Source of the DNA: a phage
Sequence record: PZ496581.1
Strand: one strand, 5' to 3'
DNA length: 64,000 bases
Below, piece after piece: positions 27,215 to 50,642 of the stretch. Position numbers and translations under genes: made by a program. The notes under the pieces were generated by a model. The model saw nothing but the letters and a program-made list of their open reading frames with translations, had not been told where the DNA came from and ran no database searches. Numbering within the stretch: the first letter of the stretch is position 1; each line of letters opens with the position of its first letter.

Positions 27215-27249
27215 GATGATAGTATCACACATCCATGTGTTTGTAAACT
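27215..27249 (-). promoter_or_regulatory. Early promoter cassette (GTTTAC-N18-TACTAT)
   Basis: Minus-strand GTTTAC (27243-27248) and TACTAT (27219-27224) with conserved leader ..CATCAAACAACATGAGGAAAAC. Confidence 0.65.
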
Positions 27250-29335
27250 ATCCTTGGATAAATTTAAACGGAACTGATTCTAAATCCATTAAAGATGCTA
27301 ACAATTTCAAACCTTTAGGTGCACTAGTTTTTTCTACAAATGAGGAGAACGATACCGGCTCATCTGATTCGATTTCACCCGTCATAGCAACCACCTCGCC
27401 TGTTTCCATGAGAACATCACCATCATAAATGACAGCTTCGTCCAACTGGTCCGAGGACATGACTTCAGCTTGAATAAATTTAAGGTTGGATTCTAAACCT
27501 GCACCAGTGTCAGATGACGCATCTGTAATTTTATTTATCTGCAAGAGAATGCCTCTAGGCAAAATAATTTCTTGCTCATTAGGGTGATTACTCAACTGTC
27601 CTGGATAAATCACGTTAACTTTATGGGCGCCATCAATAGCCCATCCAACGTTAACACGGATTTGTTCTGGCGCATGCATAGCTGTTCTTACTTGACTAGG
27701 AGAAATGGTAACACCTTCGTCATTATTGTCAATGTTAAGCTCTTTGCGAACTTCTTCAGGAGCAAGTCCAAGGGCAACGTTCTCTTTAAACCCACCGAAA
27801 ATAATAGGAGCTAGTGAAGTGGAAACATAGTTTCTGAAGTAGAATACCTTATTTTTAACCATTGCTTCGTAAATAGGCATTCTGATAGACTGAGCTCTAT
27901 ATAACGTTAGTCCTTCAGGTAAACGGTCTCCATTTAAAAACGCCGAATCAAGACCATCAATAGCGCGTTTAACTTCATCTTCATCTGCAACATCGTAAAA
28001 ATCTGGTTTATAACGACCTAACAACATATTATTGATATCGGTATACGCAGAAGAGGCATATTCGCGAATAGCTCGTTTTTCAGCAACAGAGTATTGTTTA
28101 GGGTCCCGATTCATTGTTATATTAAAGGTGCCTCTAGCCGATTCTCGTGCATAAGTATACATCACATTAGACAAGAACGCTGATTTACGTTGTTTCCAAG
28201 TTTTTTCAGATACTTCAGCTAAAACATCGTCGGCCAGTTGGAAATTATCACGTCTAAAATCTTCAAACCATTCGTCTTTAATAGAGTCCGCAATTTCGTT
28301 TGCAGCTTCAACAAAAGCAGCTAATGCTTTAACAGATGTTGTTTTTTCAGTTTTAATTTTCTTAGCAAACTTTTCTAAAGTTGGCTTAATAACACTACCA
28401 TAAGAAACTTCATCAGCAAATCTAAAGGATTCATCAATACGATTATAAATCTTATTTTCGATATCAGCAACTAAAGTGCCTTTTGCTGTGGATGATGCTT
28501 GGGCTAGTACGATTTCATATGCTTCAGGAAGTAATTCGGCTGTAGCCGGGCCACTAACTTCTTTAGCAGAATTTTCGTATTTCTGGAATAACTCACCTTC
28601 TTGGCGGTCAGCTTCTAAAGATTGGCTTGCGGCAATAGCACGACGAGAAATTTTAGTACGAGCAATAACAGGCTTATCTTTACGTTTTTCTTCTACAGCA
28701 GCAATAGAACCAGCGATAGCCGTTTCTTTGGTGACTTTTTCGCCGGTCTTTTTACTCACATAAACTTCGCCAACATCAGAATCTACTTTCGTGTACAACT
28801 CTGTGTTAATGTTAGGGATGCCTTTAATATCTTCAATGTTGGCATTTTTACGAACCATCATCACATAGGTGTGTTTACCTGTGAATTGATACATTGCCGA
28901 CAATACTTTAAAACGACCACCGGTTTTAGTAGAAACTAAACGAGCAAGAAGAGTTTGAAGCTGTTGTCCACGTCCTTTCAATTTCTTGGTAGGGAATCGG
29001 AACAGAACTGCATCCATACGAAGAGCTTTAACTTGTTCATATACTGTATTGAAAATGGTGTTGATTGCATCAATAGGAGCAGGACCAAGGCCATTTTTCA
29101 ATTCAGCGAGATTACCCTTTTCAGACAGACTCATAATAACAACATGAGCGTATTTGTCGCCAAGTTTAACTTGTTTTACAGCGTCGCCTTCGGAAAGGTA
29201 AGAGAATAAACGAACTACAATATTTGTATCGATATCACCAATTTTCCAGACTTGTGGAACTTTAGCTTTAGGGTTCAAATTGACGACAGGAAGACTGCCT
29301 TCAGATTCAAACACTTCATTTAATTGTTCAGACAT
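27248..29335 (-). CDS. alt: Alt, virion-packaged ADP-ribosyltransferase
   Basis: 695 aa ORF aligning along its length to T4 Alt (..ISRRAIA.SQSLE.., ..LYRSQ..PIYEAMVKN.VFYFRNFVSTSL.., ..ITDAS.., C-terminal ..FVQG). Confidence 0.93.
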   Translation of the reverse strand: MSEQLNEVFESEGSLPVVNLNPKAKVPQVWKIGDIDTNIVVRLFSYLSEGDAVKQVKLGDKYAHVVIMSLSEKGNLAELKNGLGPAPIDAINTIFNTVYEQVKALRMDAVLFRFPTKKLKGRGQQLQTLLARLVSTKTGGRFKVLSAMYQFTGKHTYVMMVRKNANIEDIKGIPNINTELYTKVDSDVGEVYVSKKTGEKVTKETAIAGSIAAVEEKRKDKPVIARTKISRRAIAASQSLEADRQEGELFQKYENSAKEVSGPATAELLPEAYEIVLAQASSTAKGTLVADIENKIYNRIDESFRFADEVSYGSVIKPTLEKFAKKIKTEKTTSVKALAAFVEAANEIADSIKDEWFEDFRRDNFQLADDVLAEVSEKTWKQRKSAFLSNVMYTYARESARGTFNITMNRDPKQYSVAEKRAIREYASSAYTDINNMLLGRYKPDFYDVADEDEVKRAIDGLDSAFLNGDRLPEGLTLYRAQSIRMPIYEAMVKNKVFYFRNYVSTSLAPIIFGGFKENVALGLAPEEVRKELNIDNNDEGVTISPSQVRTAMHAPEQIRVNVGWAIDGAHKVNVIYPGQLSNHPNEQEIILPRGILLQINKITDASSDTGAGLESNLKFIQAEVMSSDQLDEAVIYDGDVLMETGEVVAMTGEIESDEPVSFSSFVEKTSAPKGLKLLASLMDLESVPFKFIQG

Positions 29336-29374
29336 AGTGTTTTCCTTTTAGTAATAATTTATATTTATGCCAAA

Positions 29375-29390
29375 AAGAGCCCGAAGGCTC
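29375..29390 (-). terminator. UUCG-tetraloop terminator upstream of alt
   Basis: Minus strand AGAGCC-UUCG-GGCUCU followed by UUUU. Confidence 0.65.
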
Positions 29391-29579
29391 TTAATCCACA
29401 ATCGGAAGCAAAGTACGATAAACTTCAAAATTAGAGCCTTTTTCGTACTTATCGAAATTGTCCATAAAAATATGATAGGAATCGTTATTAGGAAAATCTA
29501 ATATAATCTGAGAGCAAGAGGTGGAAACATCTCCACCATCCTTCTTAGCTACAATAACTGTTTCTAAATAAGCTTTCAT
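29391..29579 (-). CDS. Hypothetical small protein (62 aa)
   Basis: ATG overlaps the DNA ligase stop (ATGA coupling); the listed ORF extends 7 codons upstream into the ligase gene. Confidence 0.5.
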   Translation of the reverse strand: MKAYLETVIVAKKDGGDVSTSCSQIILDFPNNDSYHIFMDNFDKYEKGSNFEVYRTLLPIVD

Positions 29580-31072
29580 TATAAACCTGTCTGGGACCAC
29601 GGTCCAAATACGTCTTCAAACGAATCCGCTTCTGTTTTATCAAAACGGAACCCTTTAATAATTGGGAGGAAAATACCTACAGTGCCTTCACGTCCTTTAG
29701 AATGAACCCAACCATTGCATTCACAATCAGCAATACGTCCAATCAATTTACCTTCACGAGCTTCGGTCATTAATCGTTCACGGTCCAAATCATGTCGCTC
29801 ATCTAAAGGAATAAGAACCTTTACACCATCAACTGTTTTATGAGTTGTATCTTTAAACCCTGAACCACAATCGGTTGTAATACGACGACAACGTGATACG
29901 AGTTCGACACCACCTAATTTGTTAGGGTCTTTAGAGTGTTCATAGTATCCTACAACTTCTAAAGCGATATCAATAACTTCTTTAAATTTAATTAGGTTCT
30001 TAGAACGTTTGTTTTCCCAATATGAATCACGGTTTTTAAGGATAATACCTTCAAGACCTTGGTCAACATATTTTTTATAAACCACTTTAGCTTCGTCAAG
30101 ATTACGAACTAACTGATTTTCAATTGGCTCAATTCGTTTAAAGCCTTCAGCCATATTTTCAAGAGCAGCAAAACGAACATCGTATTTCTGACCTTTAATT
30201 TTGCCATCAGAATAGACTTCATCTAAAGGAACATAGTCCCAGGCTTGAAGAACCATACCTTCAGCTTCTTTAGGAGAAATAGTCCCTTGAAGAGATTTAT
30301 TTGCTAAACCGTTTGAAGTGCTACGGTCCGCAACTTGTACTTCTTCGGATTCTTCATTATCACCAAATAAGAACGACAGGTCATTTCCTGAGCTCACAGC
30401 CTTTTTAATATCAAATGAATGGTAAACTAATTCACCGTCGATTAAAACCCCATTAGGGTGTCTTTCACGAGCTTCTTTAGTCATTTCCATTAGTTCATCC
30501 GCTAATAGAGTAAGACCATGATATTCGTTGCCGGCACGAGAAAAGAATTGAACACCATCATCGCGAACTTCAGCGAAACAACGAGCACCATCTGCTTTTA
30601 ATTGGGCAAATGCGGGCCATTTAATATTTTTAGTAATCAATTTCTCATCATATGCAGATGCTAACATCTGTGGTTGCAATTGAATAAGTCCAGGCCACAC
30701 CTTATTCGCGATAGACACTGAAGCACCTACTTCAAGGTCGCGCATCATTACACGACGAAGGACTTCTACATCATCAGGTTTACCGTCAGCGATATAACCC
30801 ATGAGCTCTTTAATTGCAGCATTACCAGTGAGTTTACGAGTGGCTAATGTGAACTCAATAAAATCCAACATGTCATCTAATTCAAGAAGACCATACGCTT
30901 GAGACCTTTCACCTGGTCCTGGCCATTTCTTAATATAATACTGGATACCACGTGCATATGTTAAACGATACACACGTTCAAGTAATTTGTTGTCCTTATT
31001 TTTCTTAAGGATTTCCTGTTTTGTTTTAGTAGAACCGATCGCAGCTATTTGGTTTAAAATATCTAAAATCAT
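29579..31072 (-). CDS. 30: ATP-dependent DNA ligase gp30
   Basis: 497 aa ORF near-identical to T4 DNA ligase (MIL.ILN.IA.IGSTK.KQ.IL.KNKDN.., adenylation motif KADGAR). Confidence 0.96.
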   Translation of the reverse strand: MILDILNQIAAIGSTKTKQEILKKNKDNKLLERVYRLTYARGIQYYIKKWPGPGERSQAYGLLELDDMLDFIEFTLATRKLTGNAAIKELMGYIADGKPDDVEVLRRVMMRDLEVGASVSIANKVWPGLIQLQPQMLASAYDEKLITKNIKWPAFAQLKADGARCFAEVRDDGVQFFSRAGNEYHGLTLLADELMEMTKEARERHPNGVLIDGELVYHSFDIKKAVSSGNDLSFLFGDNEESEEVQVADRSTSNGLANKSLQGTISPKEAEGMVLQAWDYVPLDEVYSDGKIKGQKYDVRFAALENMAEGFKRIEPIENQLVRNLDEAKVVYKKYVDQGLEGIILKNRDSYWENKRSKNLIKFKEVIDIALEVVGYYEHSKDPNKLGGVELVSRCRRITTDCGSGFKDTTHKTVDGVKVLIPLDERHDLDRERLMTEAREGKLIGRIADCECNGWVHSKGREGTVGIFLPIIKGFRFDKTEADSFEDVFGPWSQTGL

Positions 31073-32838: not shown

Positions 32839-33025
32839 GTTTCAACCCTTTAATAGGAGATAACTCTTTACCCATACGTATGTCAGAAGTCCCATCAACC
32901 CATTGAACAGCATACGCTTCATTGATAATTCCAGCGGCAGTTTTAAATTCGTTGAGAACTTTAAAAATCATCCCAGGAATTCCAACACCTTTTAATTGGA
33001 CTGTTTGTGCTATTAAAAATTTCAT
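32828..33025 (-). CDS. Hypothetical protein
   Basis: 65 aa ORF in the 30.x array; possible sigma70-like -10 TATAAT upstream (33040-33060). Confidence 0.5.
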   Translation of the reverse strand: MKFLIAQTVQLKGVGIPGMIFKVLNEFKTAAGIINEAYAVQWVDGTSDIRMGKELSPIKGLKHVE

Positions 33026-33079
33026 ATTTTTCCACTTACTAAAGAAATCATTATACTCTAATCCGTCCTTGGATGTACA

Positions 33080-33694
33080 CTACTTAATGAAATTAATTTC
33101 TACCGGATGAACAACAGGTTGAGCAGTGATATATTGAGTAATTGCTTTCATGACTAGAGCTTCAGAACCAGGATTTTTCTCAACGAATTCACGTGCTAGG
33201 TTATGAGCTTCGAGTTCACTCAATAAACCGGAACGCTGGCATCCACGGTCTTGAGTACCCTGTTCAGATAAAAGGACTACTACATATTTTTCATCGTCGT
33301 AGGGCTTAGCCAGTTGAGCAAATGTTCCTTTACTTCCAAAAGGAGAGTTATGTCGCCACATCACGCCGTGAGGAGTTTCAACCTTCGTATATTCGTGCGG
33401 TCCATTTTTCTTAGTTTCTTGATGTGGAACTTCATAGACCTTAGGGTTAGGACATTCAATAAAATGCTCATCTAAATCGGTCGAGAATATTAAAGTAAAA
33501 CAATTACTGAATTTACCAACACCGGCCTGATAAATTTTACCTTCAGAAGTTCTAATTTCACAAACTGAGCCGGCATCAGTAACTTCTAAAACTTCAAAAG
33601 GCTCAATAAGGTCATATGAGAACATGTTTTTAAGGCGTGGAGTAATATCCCCATTTTTAAAATTCATTTTATAAAAAGTATTAACTTTAAACAT
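33080..33694 (-). CDS. Hypothetical protein (204 aa)
   Basis: ATG 33694 with SD GAGGAA; a hairpin (tgggagc-cgaa-gctccca, 33703-33720) lies just upstream. Confidence 0.6.
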   Translation of the reverse strand: MFKVNTFYKMNFKNGDITPRLKNMFSYDLIEPFEVLEVTDAGSVCEIRTSEGKIYQAGVGKFSNCFTLIFSTDLDEHFIECPNPKVYEVPHQETKKNGPHEYTKVETPHGVMWRHNSPFGSKGTFAQLAKPYDDEKYVVVLLSEQGTQDRGCQRSGLLSELEAHNLAREFVEKNPGSEALVMKAITQYITAQPVVHPVEINFIK

Positions 33695-33729: not shown

Positions 33730-34095
33730 TTAGATATCAAATTCGTTAAGAACTACATCAAAGATTGCTTCGAGATGTTCAGGTTTAGCTCGGTTACTCA
33801 GGATATGACGAATCCAAGTTTTAACCAGAAGTTTACGATTAACACCATTCCAGCAAGGATGAGTACCTAAATCACGCTGACGGAAATCATCATCTAATGC
33901 AATTTTAAAATTTGAACCTTCCATCGTGATTGAAACCGTGATACCATTTTCAAATCGCATATAAACGTAATTAGGAGTCATGCACTGTTCGATTTCACAA
34001 ACTGTACCGTTTTCGTGTTTCCATAAGCAAATAACTTCAGAAGAACCAGCAATACCGTTAGAAACATATTTACGTTCGAAGTTGGTGTAGTTCAT
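33730..34095 (-). CDS. Hypothetical protein (121 aa)
   Basis: ORF with its own early-promoter cassette and SD. Confidence 0.6.
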   Translation of the reverse strand: MNYTNFERKYVSNGIAGSSEVICLWKHENGTVCEIEQCMTPNYVYMRFENGITVSITMEGSNFKIALDDDFRQRDLGTHPCWNGVNRKLLVKTWIRHILSNRAKPEHLEAIFDVVLNEFDI

Positions 34096-34134
34096 TTTAT
34101 TCTCCAGATGTTTAAGTTGTTTGTTGGTACAGGT

Positions 34135-34166
34135 CTATAATAACATAACCTGTACCAAAGTAAACT
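34135..34166 (-). promoter_or_regulatory. Early promoter cassette (GTTTAC-N17-TATTAT)
   Basis: Minus-strand GTTTAC (34160-34165) and TATTAT (34137-34142). Confidence 0.65.
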
Positions 34167-34169: not shown

Positions 34170-34538
34170 TTATGCAACTTTAATCCAATTGTCTAAATTT
34201 AAAACACCTTTGGCTTTCATTTTTTCTATCAGGTTATCTGCTGTAATGCGTCCATTTTGATACCATGTAACATCTTCAGAGTAACCAGTTTCTTCGTCAA
34301 CATATGTTTCTGAACGAATTTTACCGGTAATAATAGTTTTTAATTCGTATGTGTCACCTGTGAAAAAGTTTGCTAACACAATTTTCCAAGAGAAATCATC
34401 AGAAGGACCTTCAGGGGTCATACAACCTACGAACTCAAATTGCTCTTTGTATAACATCCACTGGAATTCTTTAATTTCGATAGCTTTATAACCATCGTGG
34501 TCTTTACATTTGATGTATGAGTTCAGATTGATTTTCAT
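34170..34538 (-). CDS. Hypothetical protein (122 aa)
   Basis: ORF with its own early-promoter cassette; SD GGAGAA. Confidence 0.6.
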   Translation of the reverse strand: MKINLNSYIKCKDHDGYKAIEIKEFQWMLYKEQFEFVGCMTPEGPSDDFSWKIVLANFFTGDTYELKTIITGKIRSETYVDEETGYSEDVTWYQNGRITADNLIEKMKAKGVLNLDNWIKVA

Positions 34539-34579
34539 TTTGTTCTCCAGGTTGTTTTATTGATTAGATGGTACAAGTC

Positions 34580-34611
34580 TATAGTAACACATCCTACAGG
34601 AGAGTAAACAT
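34580..34611 (-). promoter_or_regulatory. Early promoter cassette (GTTTAC-N17-TACTAT)
   Basis: Minus-strand GTTTAC (34605-34610) and TACTAT (34582-34587). Confidence 0.65.
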
Positions 34612-34645
34612 CTTTTTAAACTTTTTCTGCCCTAAACGCACAAAA

Positions 34646-34663
34646 GGGAGACCGAAGTCTCCC
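34646..34663 (-). terminator. UUCG-tetraloop terminator (GGGAGAC-UUCG-GUCUCCC)
   Basis: Minus strand hairpin followed by UUUUG, 6 nt after the stop of the 59 aa ORF; identical 18-mer recurs at 50673-50690 and 59033-59050. Confidence 0.8.
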
Positions 34664-36215: not shown

Positions 36216-36786
36216 AAAAGTTTCGAATTTGTTCCCAATTCAGAGAACGAAGATTATTACGAGAGTACTGAATTACTTCAATACCGGCTTGTTTTAGAAT
36301 GTCTGCCCAATTTTCAGGAGATCGGTCATATAATTCTGCATATACAACCTTTTTAATACCTGACTGTGTAATAGCTTTAGTGCAATCAGGGCACGGAGAA
36401 AGCGTAGTATATAACGTAGCACCTTCAATAGAATTACCTTTACGAGCTGCAAACAAAATTGCATTCAATTCAGCATGGATTTCGTTATTAGCAGACCATG
36501 CACTATGAGCGGCCCGATGTTCTTTAGCCAAAACAAAATTATCCACCCGTCCAAATGCTGTAGTGCCTTCTTTATGCCCAGCAACGATGTCCGGGCTTGG
36601 TTTATTCTTCAACCAACCGTTTTCGGATGCATGTTCGCAACAGTTTGTACCACCGGCCGGGCTACCGTTATACCCAGTAGAAATAATGCGCCCATCTTTT
36701 TCAATGACGGCACCAACTTTCCATGAACAACATTTTGATTCTTGAGAAATCAGATATGCAATCTGAAGGTATGTGCTAGCTTTCAT
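36205..36786 (-). CDS. cd: dCMP deaminase
   Basis: 193 aa ORF with zinc-binding deaminase motifs HAELNAI and SPCPDC; T4 Cd is 193 aa. Confidence 0.95.
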   Translation of the reverse strand: MKASTYLQIAYLISQESKCCSWKVGAVIEKDGRIISTGYNGSPAGGTNCCEHASENGWLKNKPSPDIVAGHKEGTTAFGRVDNFVLAKEHRAAHSAWSANNEIHAELNAILFAARKGNSIEGATLYTTLSPCPDCTKAITQSGIKKVVYAELYDRSPENWADILKQAGIEVIQYSRNNLRSLNWEQIRNFCGE

Positions 36787-37778
36787 TATTGAACCTTATT
36801 AATATGAGTTAACAGCTCTTTAGTTTGTTCCCAACTGATGCACGCATCGGTAACGGAAACGCCATAGGACATATTATCAGAAATTTTTTGATTTCCTTCA
36901 TGTAGGAATGATTCTATCATAATTCCTTTGACCAAATCATTAGCTGCTAAATTTTTACCAATACCAATTTGATTGCTATAATGCCCATCAGCGTTTGCAT
37001 GGCTACAGTCAACCATTACATAATGATTCAGACCTACTGCCCTTGCTTTGTTAGAAGCTTCTTGAATATCAGAAGAATGATAGTTCGGGCCGTTGGTCCC
37101 GCCACGCAATACGATATGCGTATTCTGATTACCTTCAGCTTCAACAATGCCTACAGTACCATCGACGTCCATACCCATATACCGATGAGGCCAGGCGGCA
37201 CTATACATCGCGTCTGTAGCTACTTTAATAGAACCATTGGTTGCGTTCTTGAAGCCTACGCACATCGGTAGACCTGAAGCAATTTCACGATGTGTCTGAC
37301 TTTCAGTCGTACGGGCGCCAATAGCAACCCATGAGAAAATACCAGAAAGATACTTAATCGTGAATGGGTCTAATACTTCAGTTGCTAATGGAAGTCCCAT
37401 ACGTAGAAGTTTACGACACAATGTTCGTGCAACTATAAGACCGTGGTTCATATCAAAACTTCCGTCAAGATATGGATCATTTACAAGACCTTTCCAACCT
37501 ACGGTAGTTCGAGGCTTTTCAAAATAAACGCGCATCACTAACAGAACATTAGGAAGACGAGTTTGAAGTTCAGCCAAACGTTTGCCGTATTCAACAGCAG
37601 CAATAGGGTCATGAATTGAACAAGGACCTACAACAATAAGTTTGCGTGGGTCTTCACCGTTCATAATCGAATTAACTTGTTCGCGATGAGAAGCCACTTG
37701 TGATGCGTAAGCTTCCGACAAAGGAATAATCTCAGCCAGTTCTTTTGGAGAAATAAGTTTTCCGACGACAGGTAACAT
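36786..37778 (-). CDS. 3-deoxy-7-phosphoheptulonate (DAHP) synthase, class I (AroG/AroF-like)
   Basis: 330 aa ORF alignable along its length to E. coli AroG: ..VVGPCSIHDP.., ..MRVYFEKPRTTVGWKGL.NDP.., ..AIGARTTESQTHRE.ASGL.., ..ILRGG.., ..IESFLHEGNQ..; SD AAGGA; stop overlaps the cd start (ATGA). Confidence 0.9.
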   Translation of the reverse strand: MLPVVGKLISPKELAEIIPLSEAYASQVASHREQVNSIMNGEDPRKLIVVGPCSIHDPIAAVEYGKRLAELQTRLPNVLLVMRVYFEKPRTTVGWKGLVNDPYLDGSFDMNHGLIVARTLCRKLLRMGLPLATEVLDPFTIKYLSGIFSWVAIGARTTESQTHREIASGLPMCVGFKNATNGSIKVATDAMYSAAWPHRYMGMDVDGTVGIVEAEGNQNTHIVLRGGTNGPNYHSSDIQEASNKARAVGLNHYVMVDCSHANADGHYSNQIGIGKNLAANDLVKGIMIESFLHEGNQKISDNMSYGVSVTDACISWEQTKELLTHINKVQ

Positions 37779-37898: not shown

Positions 37899-38135
37899 TT
37901 ATAGTGTTCCATATACTCGAGTTGCTTCAACTAAACCGTCACTGCCTAATTTAAGGCTAGTAATCTGGTCACCATCTTTAGGATTAACGATTATGAGAAA
38001 AGAACGTGGAGATTCTTGAATAACTCGTAATGTTGCATCCTGGAAACGTTCAGACACTTTATTGATGAGTGCTTGAGCAAATTCTTTTACTTTAATCTGA
38101 AATTCGTGTACTGTAATTGGGTTTTCACTTAGCAT
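37899..38135 (-). CDS. Hypothetical protein (cd.x-like)
   Basis: 78 aa ORF with early-promoter cassette and SD GAGGAAAT. Confidence 0.55.
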   Translation of the reverse strand: MLSENPITVHEFQIKVKEFAQALINKVSERFQDATLRVIQESPRSFLIIVNPKDGDQITSLKLGSDGLVEATRVYGTL

Positions 38136-38162
38136 TTCGATTTCCTCATTGTGTTGGTAGAG

Positions 38163-38195
38163 TCATAGTATCACAACTCTACCATGTTGTAAACC
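38163..38195 (-). promoter_or_regulatory. Early promoter cassette (GTTTAC-N18-TACTAT)
   Basis: Minus-strand GTTTAC (38189-38194) and TACTAT (38165-38170). Confidence 0.65.
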
Positions 38196-39963: not shown

Positions 39964-40262
39964 TATTTTATTCCTAAGAAAGTTTCAAGAATACGAATGT
40001 TATGCTCGCGCCGGTCTTTATTAATTTCAGCAACGTTTTTATTAATTGACGTACTTCTAACGTTTGAAGAAATAAATTTAATCATATGACTTTTGAGTTG
40101 TTGCAAATCCAACCCTTTTTCTTTAGCAGCTTTACGAAGAGCTTTACCTGCTTCATCTAGTGCCTTTGCTGCATCTTTGTCATAATCTACAAGTGTCATT
40201 CCACGGCAGATATCAATATACTCATCAGACCGTTTGATGTAATTCTCTAGTAATGTTTTCAT
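39963..40262 (-). CDS. Hypothetical protein (99 aa)
   Basis: Lys-rich helical ORF. Confidence 0.55.
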
Positions 40263-40319
40263 TTAGATTTCCTCAATTATCCATAGGAGCATTATACTCT
40301 GCTCCCGAGAGTTTGTAAA

Positions 40320-40544
40320 CTATTTTACTAAAGATTCAATATACTCATGAAGAGCTTTAGTCGCTACTGCCCACTTATTCTGATATTCATTTTTCAGATT
40401 AGCACGAGACTGAACTAACAAGCGGTCATTAGTCGGAGGCAAAGATTCTAATCGTTGAATCTGGCGTCCATAAATCATAGCCGCCATTTCAGATTCATAG
40501 ATAAGCCCTTTAATGTATTCATGCTGTTCTTTAGTCATTGGCAT
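40320..40544 (-). CDS. Hypothetical protein (74 aa)
   Basis: ORF overlapping the o-spanin stop. Confidence 0.55.
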   Translation of the reverse strand: MPMTKEQHEYIKGLIYESEMAAMIYGRQIQRLESLPPTNDRLLVQSRANLKNEYQNKWAVATKALHEYIESLVK

Positions 40545-41178: not shown

Positions 41179-41666
41179 GTTTTAATAATCTCAATGATTT
41201 CATCTCGGGATAATCCATTGATAAGAACGGTTTTCAAACCATCACACTGGATTTTGTACGATTCAAACAATACACACAACTCTTCTGCTGTATGATACGG
41301 ACTTGAAATTCCGAGGCGGTTGAATTTGTCGGTAAGAGGGTCGCAAATAATGTAGAATTTTATACCTGCGATATGTACGTTTGGTTGACTAATATTAATG
41401 AACACATTAGCGTCATATTTAGTCAAATTGTTTTGAAGAAATTCTACCATGGCATTAACTGCTTCCGGCATCGCTTCGCGTTTCTCTTCAGCGTATCGGG
41501 TGGAATACTCTTTTTGTTTTACTTTCTTTTTAAGATTTTTGGCCAGTGTAACACGTAGGTCAGTAAGATAACCAACTGGACGTCCCTTCTTAAAGACCCG
41601 GATTCCGTCAGTTGTGTCTCCAAAAGCGGTTACGACCATATCGTTAGTAATCAATTGCATATTCAT
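41166..41666 (-). CDS. alc: Alc-like protein (inhibitor of host transcription on cytosine DNA)
   Basis: 166 aa from ATG 41666 (SD GAGGAG); size and position between the pseT cluster and rnlA match T4 alc; no sequence recall to confirm. Confidence 0.6.
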   Translation of the reverse strand: MNMQLITNDMVVTAFGDTTDGIRVFKKGRPVGYLTDLRVTLAKNLKKKVKQKEYSTRYAEEKREAMPEAVNAMVEFLQNNLTKYDANVFINISQPNVHIAGIKFYIICDPLTDKFNRLGISSPYHTAEELCVLFESYKIQCDGLKTVLINGLSRDEIIEIIKTCLK

Positions 41667-41694
41667 AATTTTCTCCTCGTGTTGTTGATAAAAG

Positions 41695-41727
41695 CCATAG
41701 TAACACCATCCTTGGTGTTTGTAAACC
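41695..41727 (-). promoter_or_regulatory. Early promoter cassette (GTTTAC-N18-TACTAT)
   Basis: Minus-strand GTTTAC (41721-41726) and TACTAT (41697-41702) with conserved leader ..TATCAACAACACGAGGAGAA. Confidence 0.65.
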
Positions 41728-41728
41728 A

Positions 41729-42862
<1,134 letters not shown>

Positions 42863-42876
42863 TCAGTTAGTTTTTT

Positions 42877-42907
42877 AAATTGTACCACAATCCTTGTGGT
42901 GTGTAAA
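42877..42907 (-). promoter_or_regulatory. Early promoter (GTTTAC-N16-TACAAT) upstream of rnlA
   Basis: Minus-strand GTTTAC (42901-42906) and TACAAT (42879-42884). Confidence 0.55.
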
Positions 42908-43318
42908 CTACTTTTTCTTATGTTGGATATTCCAAGGCGGGTTGAACTTTTTGATAAAAAGCGGTTCTTCAAGGTCCATTGTTGCGATGGTCATTGAACC
43001 AAGTTCGTTGGTGACTGAAAGGTCAAAACATTGGCGGGCCCAGAATTCAACCTTTTTGCCTTGCATTAAGGCATCCAAAATCATAAGTGATTTTCTTGAA
43101 TCTGAAGTCTGGTCTTTTCGATTTATGGCTGTTCGATAATAGTTAATGCGTTTCTTTAAATTCTTGGTTTTACCAATATACACAAGTTCGTCATCTATAG
43201 CAATAGCGTATATGACATTTTTCTTATTAGGGACATCAACTGTTTTAATTGTTGCATCTTCTAATAGCTCCAATTCTGTATATTTAATAAAGGAATATTC
43301 GGCGGCAATATCTTTCAT
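42908..43318 (-). CDS. denA: Endonuclease II (DenA)
   Basis: 136 aa ORF with GIY-YIG-like core (VIYAIAIDDELVYIGKTKNLKKRI.YY); T4 DenA is 136 aa; preceded by gggac-cgaa-gtccc hairpin at 43327-43340. Confidence 0.9.
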   Translation of the reverse strand: MKDIAAEYSFIKYTELELLEDATIKTVDVPNKKNVIYAIAIDDELVYIGKTKNLKKRINYYRTAINRKDQTSDSRKSLMILDALMQGKKVEFWARQCFDLSVTNELGSMTIATMDLEEPLFIKKFNPPWNIQHKKK

Positions 43319-44578: not shown

Positions 44579-46834
44579 TTAAAGCTTACAAGCAGAACAA
44601 TCTTCAGCTTTAGGTGTTTCTAATTCATAGTCATCTGTACCTGACCCATCACGAGTGTTATGATAGTAGAGATTTTTTCCGCCAAAGTACCAGAAGTAAA
44701 GCAGATCGTCAAGCATTACTGACATTGGCACTTTACCTTTCTCAAACACTGCAGGGTCATAGTAAGTATTAGCAGAAGCAGATTGGCACACCCATTTCAA
44801 CATGATAGCAACTTGGGTCAAATAAGGTTTATTACCTTTCTTAGCAAGTTTCCACGCATAGTCGTAAAGACTCATGTTATGTTCTATATTAGGAACAACC
44901 TGACGGAAGTTGCCTTCTTTAGATTCTTTAATACTCACTGGACCACGCGGCGGTTCAATCCCGTTTGTAGAGTTTGATACTTGACTGCTTGACTCACAAG
45001 GCATGAGTGCAGACAACGTTGAGTTACGAATTCCATGTTCTTTGAGTTCAGCTCGAAGTTCTTCCCAATCACATACGTAGTTCGGGGCTGCGATTTGGTC
45101 AATCTTTTTATTGTACCAGTCGATAGGTAATTCGCCTCTAGACCATTTAGTGTCTGAATAATACTCGCAACATCCTTTTTCTTTGGCGAGTTTGATTGAT
45201 GCTTTGATAAGGCCATATTGCAATCTCTCAAACAATTCATGAGTCAAATCGTTAGCGTCTTCATATGAAGCAAAGTTAGAAGCTAACCATGCAGCATAGT
45301 TCGTAACACCAACACCAAGATTACGACGCTTTTTAGCTTTTAAAGCTTCTGGAACCGGATAATCTTGATAGTCTAACAGGTTATCAAGTGCACGTACTTG
45401 TACTTCAGCAAGTTCATTAATTTTATCTTGGTCTTGCCAATCAAATTTATCCAATACAAAAGCAGATAATGTGCATAAACCAATTTCAGCATCAGGACCA
45501 TTCACATCATTAGTTGGAATAGCGATTTCACAACATAAGTTACTCTGACGAATTGGAGCTTTTTCACGAATAAATGGAGTGTAGTTATTCGTGTTATCAA
45601 CAAACTGTGGATAAATTCGAGCGGTGCCAGAACGTTCAGTCATGAACAATTCAAAGAGTTCTAGTGCTTTGATTCTTTTCTTTCTGATTGTCGGGTCTTT
45701 TTCAGCTTTCTCATAAAGCTCACGGAATTTATCTTGATCTTCAAAGAACGAGTAGTATAGTTCGCCTGACATTTCATGAGGGCTAAATAAAGTAATATAA
45801 TCATTTTTACCAAGACGTTCCATCATAAGGTCATTAATCTGAATTCCGTAGTCCATATGTCGAATACGGTTTTCATCCACGCCTTTGTTATTTTTCAGAA
45901 CTAATAGGTTCTCTACTTCTAAGTGCCACATCGGATAATACGCTGTAGCAGCACCACCACGAATACCACCTTGAGAACAAGATTTTACTGCAGTTTGGAA
46001 ATGTTTCCAGAATGGAATAACACCCGTATGTCGAACTTCACCCATACCGATCTTAGAACCTTCTGCACGAAGCATACCAACGTTGATACCGATACCAGCT
46101 CGTTTAGAAATATATTCAATAATTGATGCTGAAGTTTTGTTAATAGATTTTAACGAATCACCGGCTTCAATAACTACACAACTAGAGAACTGGCGAGTCG
46201 GAGTACGAGCACCTGCCATAATTGGAGTAGGCAATGAAACTTGATGAGTAGAAACGGCGTCATAAAAACGAATAATATGTTTCAAACGGTCATGAGTTTC
46301 GTCTTGGTGTAAGGCCATGCCAATAGCCATGATAGCAAACTGTGGAGTTTCATAAATCTTCCCAGTTGTTTTATCTTTAACTAGATATTTTTCTTTAAGC
46401 TGCATAGCACCAGCATAAGTCAGGTCAAAGTCTCGTTCATGTTTAATCTGTGAATCGAGATAAATGATTTCTTCTGCTGAATATTGAGACAACAGCTCAG
46501 GGTCATATTTGCCTTCATTAACACAGTAAGAAATATGGTCGATAAAAGCAGGCGGTTCAAACTGCCCATATACATCTTTACGAAGTGCAAACATTAGCCC
46601 TTTGGCGGCGACATACTGATAATCAGGTTCTTCGACAGAAATCGAGTTAGCTGCAACTTTAATACAAATCTTCTGAATATCTTTGGTGCTCATACCATCG
46701 ACAAGATGGGTCTTAATTTCTTCGTACAATTCATATGGGTCAATTTGTGTTCCTTCACATTGCCAAGTTAAGACTTGAATAATTTTCTGTGCATCAAAAT
46801 TTTGGGATACACCACTGCTCTTAGTTACTTGCAT
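44579..46834 (-). CDS. nrdA: Ribonucleotide reductase large subunit NrdA
   Basis: 751 aa ORF with class Ia RNR active-site region (..NLCCEI..) and C-terminal Cys pair; T4 NrdA is 754 aa. Confidence 0.95.
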   Translation of the reverse strand: MQVTKSSGVSQNFDAQKIIQVLTWQCEGTQIDPYELYEEIKTHLVDGMSTKDIQKICIKVAANSISVEEPDYQYVAAKGLMFALRKDVYGQFEPPAFIDHISYCVNEGKYDPELLSQYSAEEIIYLDSQIKHERDFDLTYAGAMQLKEKYLVKDKTTGKIYETPQFAIMAIGMALHQDETHDRLKHIIRFYDAVSTHQVSLPTPIMAGARTPTRQFSSCVVIEAGDSLKSINKTSASIIEYISKRAGIGINVGMLRAEGSKIGMGEVRHTGVIPFWKHFQTAVKSCSQGGIRGGAATAYYPMWHLEVENLLVLKNNKGVDENRIRHMDYGIQINDLMMERLGKNDYITLFSPHEMSGELYYSFFEDQDKFRELYEKAEKDPTIRKKRIKALELFELFMTERSGTARIYPQFVDNTNNYTPFIREKAPIRQSNLCCEIAIPTNDVNGPDAEIGLCTLSAFVLDKFDWQDQDKINELAEVQVRALDNLLDYQDYPVPEALKAKKRRNLGVGVTNYAAWLASNFASYEDANDLTHELFERLQYGLIKASIKLAKEKGCCEYYSDTKWSRGELPIDWYNKKIDQIAAPNYVCDWEELRAELKEHGIRNSTLSALMPCESSSQVSNSTNGIEPPRGPVSIKESKEGNFRQVVPNIEHNMSLYDYAWKLAKKGNKPYLTQVAIMLKWVCQSASANTYYDPAVFEKGKVPMSVMLDDLLYFWYFGGKNLYYHNTRDGSGTDDYELETPKAEDCSACKL

Positions 46835-46921
46835 ATATTCCTCAGTATAGGTTGATAGACATTACTCCAAACGGGATAGTATTTATCCCGTTAATTTATT
46901 ATACACTTTTAAACTGAAGCG

Positions 46922-47176
46922 TTAATTATCCTCAGCAATAATTTCTTCGTATTCTTTAGGTGTCAAGACTGTGATATCGAAATAAACCAATGGTTCTTTT
47001 TCCATACCGTAACCACCACAAAATTCACGATATTCATAAATTCGTTCATGTGAATAACAAATGAATCGTTCACCTTTAACTGTGATTTCACTATTCGGTG
47101 AAGGGATATCTAGTTCGGTAGGATTTTTCATTTCAAAAATTGTGGTGCCATATGAATTAATAAAACGTAAAATCAT
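46922..47176 (-). CDS. Hypothetical protein (84 aa) between td and nrdA
   Basis: ORF whose ATG directly abuts the td stop; followed by acgggata-aatac-tatcccgt hairpin (46878-46900). Confidence 0.6.
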   Translation of the reverse strand: MILRFINSYGTTIFEMKNPTELDIPSPNSEITVKGERFICYSHERIYEYREFCGGYGMEKEPLVYFDITVLTPKEYEEIIAEDN

Positions 47177-47488
47177 TTATACCGCCATTTTAGCTTTGAT
47201 AGTTGGATGAGATTCGTAATTTTTAAGAACGAAATCAGAATGTGTCATCGTTCCAGTAACCCAGTCCATTTGGATTTTTGTAGGCCAATTCTCAAAATTA
47301 CTAGGCCAATTAATTTCAAGAGAACATAATTCTTTAGGTTCACGACGAAGAACTTCTTTGCATTGTTCTACATGATTGCTGTAGATATGCGTGTTGCCGC
47401 CTGAGAACACTAAATCACCTGGGATAAGGTTACACATCTTCGCTACAATATGCGTCAAGGCAGCGTACGAGGCAATGTTGAACGGCAG
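47177..47488 (-). CDS. td: Thymidylate synthase, exon 2
   Basis: Encodes LPFNIASYAALTHIVAKMCNLIPGDL.FSGGNTHIY..; 312 nt as in T4 td exon 2; begins immediately after the intron terminal G. Confidence 0.9.
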   Translation of the reverse strand: MPFNIASYAALTHIVAKMCNLIPGDLVFSGGNTHIYSNHVEQCKEVLRREPKELCSLEINWPSNFENWPTKIQMDWVTGTMTHSDFVLKNYESHPTIKAKMAV

Positions 47489-48504
47489 CATTATGTTCAG
47501 ATAAGGTCGTTAATCTTATCCCGGAATTATATCCAGCTGCATGTCACCATGCAGAGCAGACTATATCTCCAACTTGTTAAAGCAAGTTGTCTATCGTTTC
47601 GAGTCACTTGACCCTACTCCCTAAAGGGATAGTCGTTAGGCATTTATGTAGAACCAATTCCACTTATCAGATTTTACACGGTAAGTAACTAATCCTGATG
47701 AAATTTCAAAATGTCTAGCCGCATCGGCTGCACATTCAAAAATAATCCCATCGCATGAAATCTTTTTGATGTTAGCTGGCTTTTTGCCTTTCATCTTTTC
47801 AGATAGTTTAGTTTTAGTTTTTTCTGAATGTTTGTGATTAAAGAACGGGTTATTTTCACCTGAACGTTTTCGGCACTTTCCACAAGTATCGGCCGAAGAT
47901 GGTATGCGAACACCGCATTTACAAAACTTGTGGTTTTCTGGATTCCATCGGCCATTTTTACTTCCGTGTTTACCATAAAGAGCTTTCCGACCATCAGGAC
48001 CAAGCTTAAGCATCTTAGCTTTAACAGTTTCAGCTCGTTTCTTAGCAATTTCTTCTTTTAATGGATGATTTGAAAGCACATCGCCAAAAGACGCATCAGC
48101 AATATTATATCCATTAATTTTAGAATTTAGCTCTTTAATCCAAAAATTTTCTCGTTCAATAATCAAATCTTTCTCATATGGAATTTCTTCCAGTACAGAG
48201 CATTCAAAAACATTACCATGTTTATTAAAAGACCTTTGAAATTTTATAGAAGAGTGAACACCGTTTTCAAGGTCTTTAAAATGTCTCTTCCATCTTTTCT
48301 CAAAATCTTTAGCACTTCCAACATACACTTTACCGTTTAAAGTGTTTTTAATCTGATAAATTCCGCTTTTCATAAACACCTCTTTTTATATAGAAGTATT
48401 TATTAAAGGGTAGTCCTACAATTTAGCACGGGATTGTCTACTAGAGAGGTCCCCCGTTTAGATAGATTACAAGTATAAGTCACCTTATACCTAGGCCTAA
48501 ATTA
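47489..48504 (-). mobile_element. Group I self-splicing intron in td, carrying the I-TevI homing endonuclease gene
   Basis: 1016 nt between td exons; 5' end (minus strand) TAATTTAGGCCTAGGTATAAGGTGACTTATACTTGTAATCTATCTAAACGGGGGACCTCTCTAGTAGACAATCCCGTGCTAAAT closely matches the remembered T4 td intron; exon 1 ends ..CTTAGGT and intron ends ..ATG as in T4. Confidence 0.92.
47636..48373 (-). CDS. I-TevI GIY-YIG intron homing endonuclease
   Basis: 245 aa from ATG 48373 (MKSGIYQIKNTLN.KVYVGSAKDFEKRWKRHFKDLE..) near-identical to T4 I-TevI including zinc finger and C-terminal DNA-binding domain; the listed ORF start at 48379 is a GTG. Confidence 0.95.
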   Translation of the reverse strand: MKSGIYQIKNTLNGKVYVGSAKDFEKRWKRHFKDLENGVHSSIKFQRSFNKHGNVFECSVLEEIPYEKDLIIERENFWIKELNSKINGYNIADASFGDVLSNHPLKEEIAKKRAETVKAKMLKLGPDGRKALYGKHGSKNGRWNPENHKFCKCGVRIPSSADTCGKCRKRSGENNPFFNHKHSEKTKTKLSEKMKGKKPANIKKISCDGIIFECAADAARHFEISSGLVTYRVKSDKWNWFYINA

Positions 48505-49878
<1,374 letters not shown>

Positions 49879-49880
49879 AA

Positions 49881-50144
49881 TTATTTCCTCAGATTTTTCT
49901 TAACAACTTTCCAATCAGCTTTAAACGATTCAACATCAGAGTGGTGAATCCAGAATCCTGCACTTTCACCATCTTCGTAGAGTGGACATCCATCACATTC
50001 TTCGTTCCAACCCATTTCACGTAAAGCTTCTTCAGCTTGTTCAAGGAGTTCAGCATCTTTACCAACGATGTTGAAGTACCATTTACCTCTAACTTCAGAA
50101 TCTTTGATGCTCTGGCGTTGCAATCTCATTTTATTCTCCTTCAC
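49881..50144 (-). CDS. Hypothetical protein (87 aa)
   Basis: ORF with Cys pair (CDGC) and its own early promoter. Confidence 0.55.
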   Translation of the reverse strand: MKENKMRLQRQSIKDSEVRGKWYFNIVGKDAELLEQAEEALREMGWNEECDGCPLYEDGESAGFWIHHSDVESFKADWKVVKKNLRK

Positions 50145-50159
50145 TTTTATTTGATAGGG

Positions 50160-50192
50160 CTACTATAACATAGCCCTATCTTGTTATAAACT
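50160..50192 (-). promoter_or_regulatory. Early promoter (GTTTAT-N18-TATAGT)
   Basis: Minus-strand GTTTAT (50186-50191) and TATAGT (50162-50167). Confidence 0.5.
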
Positions 50193-50583
50193 ACTTTTTA
50201 AAAGTTTTTTGCAAAAGTTTGATGATTTCGTCGACGTTGGTTTCATCTACGATACAATGTATTTTTGTTACACCTAAAGTTATACCTTCGTTAGTAGGTT
50301 GAGGCTTTACTAAATCTACCTCAGTAAAGTATTTGAACTCGTCAGGATAAATCTCAAAATAAGTTTCAATTTCACCACCGGCAGAACATACAGTACCATC
50401 TTCCATAGTTACACTTACTACGTTTGATGTATCGCTATCATAATCAGGTTCCATTCCGTTTACAACAAAACTGGGCCCATGGAGTTCAATCAATTTTAAC
50501 ATCTTAGCGTTATTGTGTGGTGCTTCTTGAACAAAGTCATCTTTAAATAAAGGGTTAATGATATAAGATTTTCCGATTTCCAT
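50191..50583 (-). CDS. Hypothetical protein (130 aa)
   Basis: ORF with early-promoter cassette and SD GAGGAAAT. Confidence 0.6.
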   Translation of the reverse strand: MEIGKSYIINPLFKDDFVQEAPHNNAKMLKLIELHGPSFVVNGMEPDYDSDTSNVVSVTMEDGTVCSAGGEIETYFEIYPDEFKYFTEVDLVKPQPTNEGITLGVTKIHCIVDETNVDEIIKLLQKTFKK

Positions 50584-50610
50584 TTTGATTTCCTCATGTT
50601 GTTGATAGGT

Positions 50611-50642
50611 CTATACTAACACATCCAGGGAAGAAGTAAACA
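50611..50642 (-). promoter_or_regulatory. Early promoter cassette (GTTTAC-N17-TAGTAT)
   Basis: Minus-strand GTTTAC (50636-50641) and TAGTAT (50613-50618) with conserved leader ..AGACCTATCAACAACATGAGGAAATC. Confidence 0.65.

Follow-up and report, generated by a model that had tools for sequence, protein, structure and literature searches.

At least eight loci on the minus strand of the window, the whole 64,000-nucleotide stretch of phage DNA analysed here (sequence record PZ496581.1), had been read from the letters alone as near-identical promoter cassettes placed before accessory genes and resembling the promoter-early stem-loop elements (PeSLs) of T4-type phages. The question is whether these loci are early promoters, how far their likeness extends and whether they have taken part in gene exchange. 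That interpretation was supported, and the observation behind it was partly confirmed. The sites are very probably early promoters of the T4 type in an RB69-like phage, arranged as composite cassettes in which hairpins would attenuate or insulate and shared blocks would serve as patches of homology.

The source of the window is a Mosigvirus (RB69-like T4-type coliphage). Escherichia phage a20 is 98.6% identical to it, and other Mosigvirus records show 97.5–98.4% identity. The gene order, alt-30-...-cd-pseT-alc-rnlA-nrd-td-frd-32-59-33-rnh, matches that of T4. Statistics for the sister genome APCEc01 refer to 125 kb of its record (1–75141 and 105000–154999) and not to the whole genome. A search against Rfam gave no family above threshold anywhere in the window.

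For the pattern GTTTAC-N16–19-TA(C/G)TAT (TASTAT), the expected number of exact matches in the window is 0.09; the observed number is seven, and all of them lie on the minus strand. A T4-type early-promoter motif is present at all eight of the loci originally listed. The form said to be common to them, GTTTAC-N17/18-TA(C/G)TAT, is literal at five; site 10860 has TAATAT, site 34137 has TATTAT and site 50162 has GTTTAT...TATAGT. Five further sites had been missed (13709–13738, 33050–33080, 40291–40320, 42879–42908 and 53945–53974), which makes 13 in total, every one on the early-gene (minus) strand. A generic sigma-70 consensus scan was uninformative (67 found, 59 ± 7.7 expected, no enrichment), and only the T4-type pattern carried information. 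The predicted promoter sites and the associated hairpins are as follows.

10828–10889, minus strand: site 10860, GTTTAC-N18-TAATAT with start motif agaCCTATCaaaac, SD GAGGAG and the ATG of an 88-aa ORF, then a weak SegE-like ORF; no hairpin.
13618–13738, minus strand: site 13709, GTTTAC-N18-TACTAT inside a 24.3-like ORF, with an 88-nt leader to a 24.2-like ORF; atypical, no CCTATC, no hairpin.
27187–27248, minus strand: site 27219, early promoter cassette 5′ of the alt.-3 homologue (DUF5498), the −35 overlapping the end of alt; weak hairpin potential only.
33023–33080, minus strand: site 33050, weaker variant GTGTAC-N19-TATAAT 5′ of a 65-aa ORF; absent from the earlier list, also found in APCEc01 at 55061.
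34093–34165, minus strand: site 34137, GTTTAC-N17-TATTAT upstream of 30.7.
34124–34158, minus strand: hairpin of site 34137, an 11-bp perfect inverted repeat, TTGGTACAGGT/ACCTGTACCAA, enclosing the −10; RNA −17.9 kcal/mol, z −5.2.
34536–34609, minus strand: site 34581, GTTTAC-N17-TACTAT upstream of 30.8; has TATAGAC(T/C)TGTACCA in common with the 30.7 cassette.
34641–34663, minus strand: terminator-like hairpin GGGAGAC-TTCG-GTCTCCC-TTTT just 5′ of the 30.8 promoter; identical copy at 50668–50690.
38133–38194, minus strand: site 38165, cassette 5′ of the cd.2 homologue (DUF7320).
38155–38184, minus strand: hairpin of site 38165, overlapping the −10; −16.3 kcal/mol, z −5.3; also present at T4 cd.2.
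40260–40320, minus strand: site 40291, GTTTAC-N18-TATAAT upstream of a 99-aa ORF.
40285–40306, minus strand: hairpin of site 40291, GGGAGCA/TGCTCCT, overlapping the −10; −12.2 kcal/mol, z −3.2.
41664–41726, minus strand: site 41697, cassette 5′ of alc, with a small spacer-internal hairpin ACACCA/TGGTGT; −8 kcal/mol, z −1.8.
42851–42908, minus strand: site 42879, GTTTAC-N18-TACAAT 5′ of rnlA; CCACAA/TTGTGG forms a hairpin inside the spacer; −7.2 kcal/mol, z −2.1.
50127–50191, minus strand: site 50162, GTTTAT-N18-TATAGT upstream of frd.1.
50153–50180, minus strand: hairpin of site 50162, GATAGGGCT/AGCCCTATC, overlapping the −10; −18.7 kcal/mol, z −6.5.
50581–50641, minus strand: site 50613, GTTTAC-N17-TAGTAT upstream of frd.2; origin of the 28-mer discussed below.
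50668–50690, minus strand: terminator-like hairpin 3′ of gene 32, identical to 34641–34663; with site 50613 it forms a composite of terminator, AT-rich region, promoter and SD.
53910–53974, minus strand: site 53945, GTTTAC-N18-TACTAT 5′ of rnh, which opens the leftward early block; promoter without hairpin.

A start codon lies 24–42 nt downstream at 12 of the 13 sites and 88 nt downstream at site 13709. Most sites precede small ORFs whose function is not known (30.7, 30.8, cd.2/DUF7320, alt.-3/DUF5498, FRD2 and frd.1), while others precede the conserved alc, rnlA and rnh. The −35 GTTTAC, the 17–18 nt spacer, the TGn and the −10 TAnnnT are those of T4-type early promoters. A position weight matrix (PWM) built from the window sites found 47 matches in the 125 kb of APCEc01, all 47 on the early strand. 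T4 carries matching promoters at the orthologous 30.7, 30.8, cd.2, alc, alt.-3, frd.1 and rnh, and its GenBank record lists Pe133295, an early promoter, between cd.2 and cd.3; at rnlA, T4 has TGCTT where the window has GTTTAC. Strand, proximity to start codons, the APCEc01 matches, the T4 orthologues and Pe133295 together argue for the identity of these sites as early promoters.

The similarity goes past the two hexamers and includes an A-rich UP region, TGn, a start-site motif, an A/C-rich leader and a strong SD. The A+T content of the 20 nt upstream of the −35 is 70–90% (12 sites analysed). Among the 47 APCEc01 promoters, the A-run directly 5′ of the −35 carries 0.5–0.85 bit and the G of TGn 1.5 bits. 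Positions that were not used in the PWM scan hold 0.6–1.2 bits each (C−3, C−2, T−1, A+1, T+2 and C+3 in the same 47 promoters), and the resulting start-site motif, aga-CCTATC-AA, is conserved at about 1 bit per position. For specialists, its conservation equals that of the −35. The predicted +1 A lies 7 nt below the low coordinate of the −10, e.g., at 50606, 50155, 38158 and 34130.

The sequence-only reading went too far in describing a near-identical 28-nt leader. The 28-mer occurs once in the window at up to three mismatches. It is exact at its site of origin, and with gaps its identity is 79–93% at five others (26/28 at 10860, 24/28 at 38165 and 50162, 23/28 at 41697 and 22/28 at 27219). 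Sites 34137, 34581 and 40291 reach about 19–20/28 with forced gaps, compared with 7.6/28 at random positions, and the match at the first two is poor. An unbiased repeat search recovered the cassettes as families (D4, D5, D9, D11 and D16) of only 63–75% identity. The promoter-proximal leaders nevertheless resemble one another more than other gene starts do (ATG-anchored identity over −17 to −1 of 0.45 vs. 0.34) and are also G-poor. Their GGA with an A-rich stretch after it agrees with the published RegB/S1 target. The SD and start codon close the element at 12 of 13 sites, site 13709 having its 88-nt leader instead.

As pieced together from these alignments, a cassette comprises an A/T-rich UP-like region, the −35 GTTTAC, a spacer of 17–18 nt ending in TGn, the −10 TAnnnT, CCT-A(+1)-TC with the predicted start 7 nt past the hexamer, a leader poor in G and rich in A and C, a strong SD (GAGGA/GGAG), an A-rich stretch and the ATG. 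It would be fired immediately after infection by the host sigma-70 RNA polymerase, giving the small ORF or ORFs downstream an early transcript of their own.

Such likeness could also arise among ordinary, vertically inherited early promoters that are not mobile and are kept alike by polymerase contacts and selection for translation, with any junctions due to chance recombination. The conserved positions fall on known contact elements of the polymerase (Hinton review), the promoters of T4 and of the window occupy the same gene boundaries, and the identity of cassettes within the window, 63–75%, is modest. Since many cassettes are orthologous in T4, most of the similarity is explicable by vertical inheritance and RNA polymerase constraint, without mobility. 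Comparison with relatives provides the evidence against such inheritance alone.

Cassette-bounded loss, replacement or insertion of flanking ORFs was found in three natural variants. Phage AV116 lacks 30.8, and its sole promoter here is a hybrid, consisting of the 30.8 promoter up to agacTTGTACCA and the 30.7 leader; the crossover falls in a 7-nt interval within the 15-nt block TATAGAC(T/C)TGTACCA shared by the 30.7 and 30.8 cassettes. In RB69, ORF245c stands between the promoter and frd.2, flanked by the leader repeats ATCAACAAATGAG(A)GGAAA; T4 has the unrelated 75-aa frd.3 in this slot, and the window has neither ORF. Phage LF82-4 possesses an additional unit of promoter and frd.2 paralogue. 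The proposal that the cassettes are substrates for recombination gains from these junctions, which lie inside cassettes in AV116, in the RB69/T4 frd.2 slot and in LF82-4, although the swap beside a cassette in VIPECOMC06 is a counter-example, with breakpoints inside an ORF and outside the promoter. The three cases are anecdotal, involve short shared blocks and do not amount to a census.

Against vertical inheritance alone stand three independent junctions exactly within shared cassette blocks. Near-identical cassettes also occur at non-orthologous loci: those of T4 alt.-3 and alc are identical at 53 of 54 positions, and a Karamvirus has an almost identical hairpin-promoter before an unrelated ORF. 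At frd.1 the window has one promoter cassette and T4 and LF82-4 another, and the promoter upstream of cd.2 was not found in the more distant relatives among 12 aligned loci. The VIPECOMC06 breakpoints, by contrast, accord with inheritance in place, and so do the large differences between the window and APCEc01, none of which is a cassette event: two are homing-endonuclease insertions, one being a seg-like ORF and the other the td intron, and the rest are variable hoc and gp37 segments. Taken together, vertical inheritance with chance recombination is a possible but rather doubtful account. In the composite-cassette reading, the shared blocks of 15–30 nt, chiefly the start-site motif and the leader with its SD, may act as homology patches, and rare recombination at them would delete, insert or replace the ORF between or behind cassettes.

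Stem-loops are located in or next to the promoter at 8 of the 12 window sites folded. Stable hairpins overlap the −10 at 34137, 38165, 40291 and 50162 (z −3.2 to −6.5), spacer-internal hairpins are present at 41697 and 42879, and the identical upstream terminator hairpin precedes 34581 and 50613. It is by an arrangement of this kind that Arbiol et al. 2010 and Comeau et al. 2014 define PeSLs. Among the 12 folded, no significant stem-loop was found at 10860, 13709, 27219 and 53945; the spacer of the thirteenth site, the 33050 variant, has only a 4-bp repeat. These five are plain early promoters and not full PeSLs. In APCEc01, 14 of the 47 promoters have spacer/downstream complementarity of at least 7 bp against 3.4 expected (none of 20,000 permutations reached 14), and the mean z is −2.07 (p about 1e-6). 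T4 retains such hairpins at 30.7, cd.2 and frd.1. Upstream terminators and −10 hairpins were compared for mutual exclusion (0/4 vs. 16/43, Fisher p = 0.28), with small numbers. For the cd.2 locus, a single-protein search gave 2 loci and an alignment query 12; since the distant relatives lack the promoter, no covariation set for the cd.2 hairpin was available. The frd.1 hairpins of T4 and of the window seemed to differ by a compensatory change, but this reading was rejected, the difference being replacement by a different cassette.

The stable stem-loop, present in about a third of cassettes, has its 5′ arm in the spacer and its 3′ arm at the start site, with the −10 in or next to the loop; in others a canonical terminator stands directly 5′ of the cassette. 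Both arms would be present only in read-through RNA from upstream promoters. An A-rich and not a T-rich stretch follows these stem-loops, which are therefore no canonical intrinsic terminators. By analogy with the PeSLs of RB49 and phi1, one stem-loop of which has been tested experimentally (Arbiol et al. 2010, PMC2839356), attenuation or insulation of read-through is the most likely role of the hairpin.

A different function is suggested by T4 e, soc, 49 and I-TevI (PMC3014915), where the promoter lies in the hairpin 5′ arm and, as here, only the read-through RNA can fold. The hairpins would then be translational switches, the spacer arm sequestering the ribosome-binding site in read-through RNA and the internally started RNA, without the 5′ arm, being translated. 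This mechanism is established for T4 late promoters, and some CT-rich spacers in APCEc01 are complementary to their own SD, with extensions particular to each site (14 bp at 123996, 10 bp at 120438 and 8 bp at 9669 and 127649). However, the T4 examples are late promoters whose hairpins sequester the SD/AUG, whereas those of the window stop short of it, their 3′ arm ending 8–28 nt before the SD. The predicted SD accessibility in the long RNA is 0.53, compared with 0.54 with shuffled upstream sequence (Wilcoxon p = 0.95), and only a handful of sites fit, none strongly in the window. SD sequestration by the promoter spacer was rejected as a general mechanism on this accessibility, while it is possible for a few APCEc01 sites; as an explanation of the hairpins, the switch is unlikely.

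The repeats might otherwise act as DNA, either as a cruciform or palindromic site over the −10 that shuts the promoters off or as structure-specific recombination hot spots. They are stable with DNA parameters too (z −2.7 to −5.8), and the mechanism of T4 early-promoter shut-off is described as not understood. Against this, the arm sequences vary among promoters, so that there is no common protein site, two thirds of promoters have no repeat, and the mapped junctions lie in the start-site/leader block rather than the loop. At APCEc01 cd.2 the pairing survives by way of G-T (G-U) pairs, a point in favour of RNA rather than DNA. Action at the DNA level is extremely improbable. Only slightly less remote is a dedicated device combining the −10 hairpin and the nearly invariant CCTATC, either as a structure in read-through RNA or unwound DNA that helps in the abrupt early-promoter shut-off, or as a phage-factor motif targeting recombination to the edges of cassettes; if a phage factor did target CCTATC, the cassettes would be true site-specific gene cassettes. 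Attenuation or insulation of read-through is the preferred reading.

The results provide a promoter map of the window in which small early ORFs have their own predicted transcription start. They also bring the RB69 lineage into the PeSL picture of modular gene shuffling, by way of three clean natural junctions. Among these is a hybrid promoter, whose crossover is confined to 7 nt of the start-site block. The understanding of T4-type early transcription and genome plasticity is unchanged. For specialists, T4 and RB69-type phages resemble RB49 in having their strongest stem-loops over the −10 and not upstream of the promoter.

The resemblance to PeSLs is stronger than had been claimed, since four sites have stable hairpins over the −10. 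PeSL stem-loops lie between the −35 and −10, over either box, in the AT-rich region or just 3′ of the −10, and overlap with the −10 is one of the two commonest positions (Arbiol et al. 2010, PMC2839356); the −10-straddling repeat was accordingly rejected as a new feature, being already part of that definition. The RB49/phi1 PeSLs and the window cassettes are built alike, from an AT-rich region, an early promoter, an SD and an ATG, with a stem-loop that either overlaps the −10 or lies between it and the −35. Small accessory ORFs follow the RB49/phi1 elements and most of those in the window, and in both, tandem copies flank ORFs gained, lost or replaced among close relatives. The RB49/phi1 promoters are near-perfect sigma-70 (TTGACA/TATAAT), whereas those of the window have −35 GTTTAC and −10 TA(C/T)(T/A)AT or TATAGT. 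The stems are polyG/polyC in RB49/phi1 and of mixed sequence here, often GATAGGRCT/AGYCCTATC. Unlike in RB49/phi1, only about a third of the promoters here have a stem-loop, and junctions fall in the start-site/leader block instead of the loop or AT-rich region. Terminator activity and mini-circles have been demonstrated by experiment for RB49/phi1 PeSLs alone (PMC2839356).

The PeSLs of T4 and PST (Comeau et al. 2014, PMC4122927) have the consensus TTTACW-N17-TAYWAT, the same T-even-type promoter consensus as in the window, and indels adjoin them. The exchange of ndd.4/.5 and ORF268/269 reported there parallels the frd.3, ORF245c and empty slot described above. The T4/PST stem-loops were described just upstream of the promoter, whereas the strongest ones here and those of T4 30.7, cd.2 and frd.1 overlap the −10. 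That analysis did not extend to the RB69 lineage. For RB69 itself, the available part of Nolan et al. 2006 (PMC1524935) reports 57 predicted early promoters, 13 of them upstream of novel ORFs, of the same lineage and motif as in the window, including the preference for C at −3 to −1; stem-loops, leader repeats and recombination junctions are not described in that part. As RB69 early promoters were already predicted in 2006 and PeSLs were known, the window cassettes join a known class.

In sequence comparison, Escherichia phage a20 showed 98.6% identity to a 9-kb piece of the window, and many further RB69-like Mosigvirus phages showed 97.5–98.4% identity to the same piece. Judged by the annotation of the sister phage APCEc01 and of T4, the window has a T4-like map. 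Late structural genes are on the plus strand; early and middle genes form a long block that runs leftward on the minus strand, in the order alt, 30, 30.x, rIII, 31, cd, pseT, alc, rnlA, denA, nrdB/A, td, frd, 32, 59, 33, dsbA and rnh. At the position of T4 cd.1, this early region includes a host-like metabolic gene for a 330-aa DAHP synthase (phospho-2-dehydro-3-deoxyheptonate aldolase; 36786–37778, minus strand). On the plus strand, the proximal long-tail-fibre gene gp34 (55294–56411) contains several families of 44–48-nt imperfect direct repeats, which reflect a repeated peptide motif.

All eight minus-strand loci proposed as early promoters by the sequence-only reading carry the T4-type motif. 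The pattern GTTTAC-N16-19-TA(C/G)TAT was found seven times in the window, against 0.09 expected, and every match lies on the minus strand. The literal pattern proposed is exact in five of the eight loci, the remaining three being variants. Five additional sites were found (13709, 33050, 40291, 42879 and 53945). A scan with a generic sigma-70 consensus revealed no enrichment in the region, so it is the T4-type motif in particular that stands out. Judged by sequence, all 13 elements are T4-type early promoters, with predicted activity.

Early-promoter elements of the window, with the predicted start A 7 nt past each −10
10860, minus strand: start 10853; variant TAATAT
13709, minus strand: start 13702
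27219, minus strand: start 27212; promoter of alt.-3
33050–33080, minus strand: start 33043; weaker variant GTGTAC-N19-TATAAT
34137, minus strand: start 34130; promoter of 30.7; variant TATTAT
34581, minus strand: start 34574; promoter of 30.8
38165, minus strand: start 38158; promoter of cd.2
40291, minus strand: start 40284
41697, minus strand: start 41690; promoter of alc
42879, minus strand: start 42872; promoter of rnlA
50162, minus strand: start 50155; promoter of frd.1; variant GTTTAT...TATAGT
50613, minus strand: start 50606; promoter of frd.2
53945, minus strand: start 53938; promoter of rnh

The −35 in front of rnlA is of the early type in the window (GTTTAC; 42879–42908), while T4 has TGCTT at the same place (~29466–29520 in its record, L002). 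The latter looks like a MotA-box middle promoter, and a switch of promoter class may have occurred at this orthologous site.

A two-block weight matrix was built from 12 window sites; the thirteenth, at 33050, was recognised afterwards from the APCEc01 scan. Scanning 125 kb of APCEc01 gave 47 sites, all on the early-gene strand. The scan made no use of positions lying beyond the first base after the −10, and these unused positions carry 0.6–1.2 bits each in the 47 promoters, with the consensus aga-C-C-T-A-T-C-aa and C at −3 in 36 of them. The similarity thus extends past the hexamers, and the outcome named as refuting the sequence-only reading, likeness of the hexamers alone, did not occur. 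The start motif is followed by an A-rich, G-poor leader and then by the SD. The treatment of RB69 promoters in Nolan et al. 2006 (PMC1524935) had noted C-richness at −3 to −1 and predicted 57 early promoters, 13 of them preceding novel ORFs. ATG-anchored identity over −17 to −1 was 0.45 at promoter-proximal starts versus 0.34 at other gene starts of the same region. The promoter-proximal SDs have a GGA(G)-plus-A-rich form fitting the published RegB/S1 cleavage target, and we infer that they may be actual RegB targets.

The leader had also been described as near-identical among the loci. The 28-mer quoted for it occurs once within three mismatches, and gapped identity to it is 26/28 at 10860, 24/28 at 38165 and 50162, 23/28 at 41697 and 22/28 at 27219. 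The leaders of 34137 and 34581 are longer and different, sharing only TATAGAC(C/T)TGTACCA. In an unbiased repeat search, the cassettes emerge as families at 63–75% identity. "Near-identical" is therefore an overstatement.

At 34137 (11 bp), 38165 (9 bp) and 50162 (9 bp), the promoter spacer and the start-site region hold the two arms of a perfect inverted repeat; spacers paired with downstream segments taken from other sites gave 7 bp at most. RNA folding yielded −17.9, −16.3 and −18.7 kcal/mol at these sites, respectively, and −12.2 kcal/mol at 40291 (z from −3.2 to −6.5), and all four hairpins are stable under DNA parameters too. Small spacer-internal hairpins occur at 41697 and 42879, and an identical terminator-like hairpin, GGGAGAC-TTCG-GTCTCCC-TTTT, precedes both 34581 and 50613. 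Folding gave no significant hairpin at 10860, 13709, 27219 and 53945, and the spacer of the 33050 variant, judged by its repeats, contains only a 4-bp one. In APCEc01, 14 of the 47 promoters have spacer/downstream complementarity of at least 7 bp (3.4 expected; 0 of 20,000 permutations as high), the spacer-to-start segment has a mean z of −2.07 (p ~1e-6), and strong hairpins occur in 16–19 promoters, depending on the threshold. The orthologous T4 promoters of 30.7, cd.2 and frd.1 keep equivalent hairpins. The promoter hairpin is not a new feature, since it belongs to the description of promoter-early stem-loop elements (PeSLs) by Arbiol et al. 2010 (PMC2839356). On sequence grounds, the window hairpins correspond to the defining stem-loops of PeSLs, and eight of the 13 sites have the anatomy of that definition. 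The comparison with PeSLs was apt. Relatives also have junctions like those described for these elements.

The terminator hairpin GGGAGACTTCGGTCTCCC forms a separate dispersed repeat, with copies at 34641–34663 (minus), 50668–50690 (minus) and 59033–59055 (plus). Two copies are exact, one has 2 mismatches, and two lie just upstream of early promoters.

Both arms of a promoter hairpin would be present only in RNA reading through from upstream. In RB49, one such stem-loop cut downstream reporter expression as much as a strong terminator (PMC2839356), and by this analogy attenuation or insulation of read-through would be the best-supported role. The window hairpins are followed by A-rich, not T-rich, sequence and are thus not canonical terminators. 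At T4 e, soc, 49 and I-TevI, the ribosome-binding site is hidden in read-through RNA (PMC3014915). As a general mechanism for the cassettes this role was rejected, as predicted SD accessibility in long RNA equalled that with shuffled upstream sequence. In a few APCEc01 promoters the spacer is complementary to its own SD over 8–14 bp; no window site was convincing in this respect. The APCEc01 promoters at ~123996, 120438, 9669 and 127649 form a subfamily with CT-rich spacers (TTCTCCTC...) and SD complementarity with site-specific extensions, and a translational switch for read-through RNA is possible at the genes of these four only.

The proposal that the cassettes serve as recombination substrates is supported by three natural variants, the evidence being anecdotal. 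Phage AV116 lacks gene 30.8, and its one promoter equals the window 30.8 promoter up to agacTTGTACCA and then continues as the 30.7 leader, which narrows the crossover to 7 nt within the 15-nt start-site block that both cassettes share. Three arrangements occur downstream of gene 32, in the slot separating frd.2 from the promoter: the window has no ORF there, RB69 has ORF245c with the leader repeats ATCAACAAATGAG(A)GGAAA on either side, and T4 has a 75-aa frd.3 unrelated to ORF245c. Phage LF82-4 has an additional unit of promoter and frd.2 paralogue between frd.2 and frd.1; the window frd.1 cassette resembles a fusion of the 5′ portion of this added promoter with the leader of frd.1. Any circular junctions from ongoing recombination between the cassettes around 30.8 (34581/34137) and frd.2 (50613/50162) would lie within TATAGAC(Y)TGTACCA or CCTATCAA.

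Three further observations point the same way. Enterobacter phage CW742 (L012), of another genus (Karamvirus), has at 610–670 a hairpin-promoter TAGGGCTATGTTATAGTAGCCCTATCAA almost identical to the window frd.1 cassette, located after gene 41 and before an unrelated 93-aa ORF. The T4 alt.-3 and alc cassettes (L002 ~15040–15094 and ~28283–28337), 13 kb apart, are identical at 53/54 positions from GTTTAC to the SD, while their two window counterparts agree at only ~73% of positions, which suggests recent copying or gene conversion in T4. In more distant T4-like relatives (IMG/VR contigs L017–L024 and L026), cd.2 has no upstream promoter cassette and is preceded by apparently continuous coding sequence; the cd.2 promoter was thus gained or lost within the subfamily. 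Against a special role of the cassettes, other differences should be weighed. A replacement in phage VIPECOMC06 adjoins the 40291 cassette, and its breakpoints fall within an ORF and at the start of pseT. The major departures of the window from APCEc01 are at hoc, a seg-like endonuclease gene, the I-TevI-bearing td intron and gp37.

A ~1-kb insertion with no counterpart in APCEc01 splits the thymidylate synthase gene (47488–48506). Its product is a 247-aa homing endonuclease of the I-TevI type, with GIY-YIG, zinc-finger and DNA-binding domains, and the insertion is presumably a td group I intron; Rfam gave no intron match for it. APCEc01 also lacks two Seg-like GIY-YIG endonuclease ORFs (16003–16785, plus; 9901–10560, minus). 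One is located upstream of uvsW at the T4 segE position; the weaker of the two follows the 10860 promoter and a small ORF, between genes 23 and 24. The hoc segment (14188–14990) and the distal tail-fibre gene (60000–63100) are the most diverged from APCEc01, with blastn blocks 82–90% identical and unaligned gaps.

The sequence-only reading was correct in substance. Its novelty is modest, given that early promoters of this lineage were predicted already in 2006. For the window elements, promoter activity is a prediction, attenuation a likely role by analogy, and mini-circle formation a possibility. The junctions seen in relatives resemble those described for RB49/phi1, T4/PST (Comeau et al. 2014, PMC4122927) and KVP40/nt-1.
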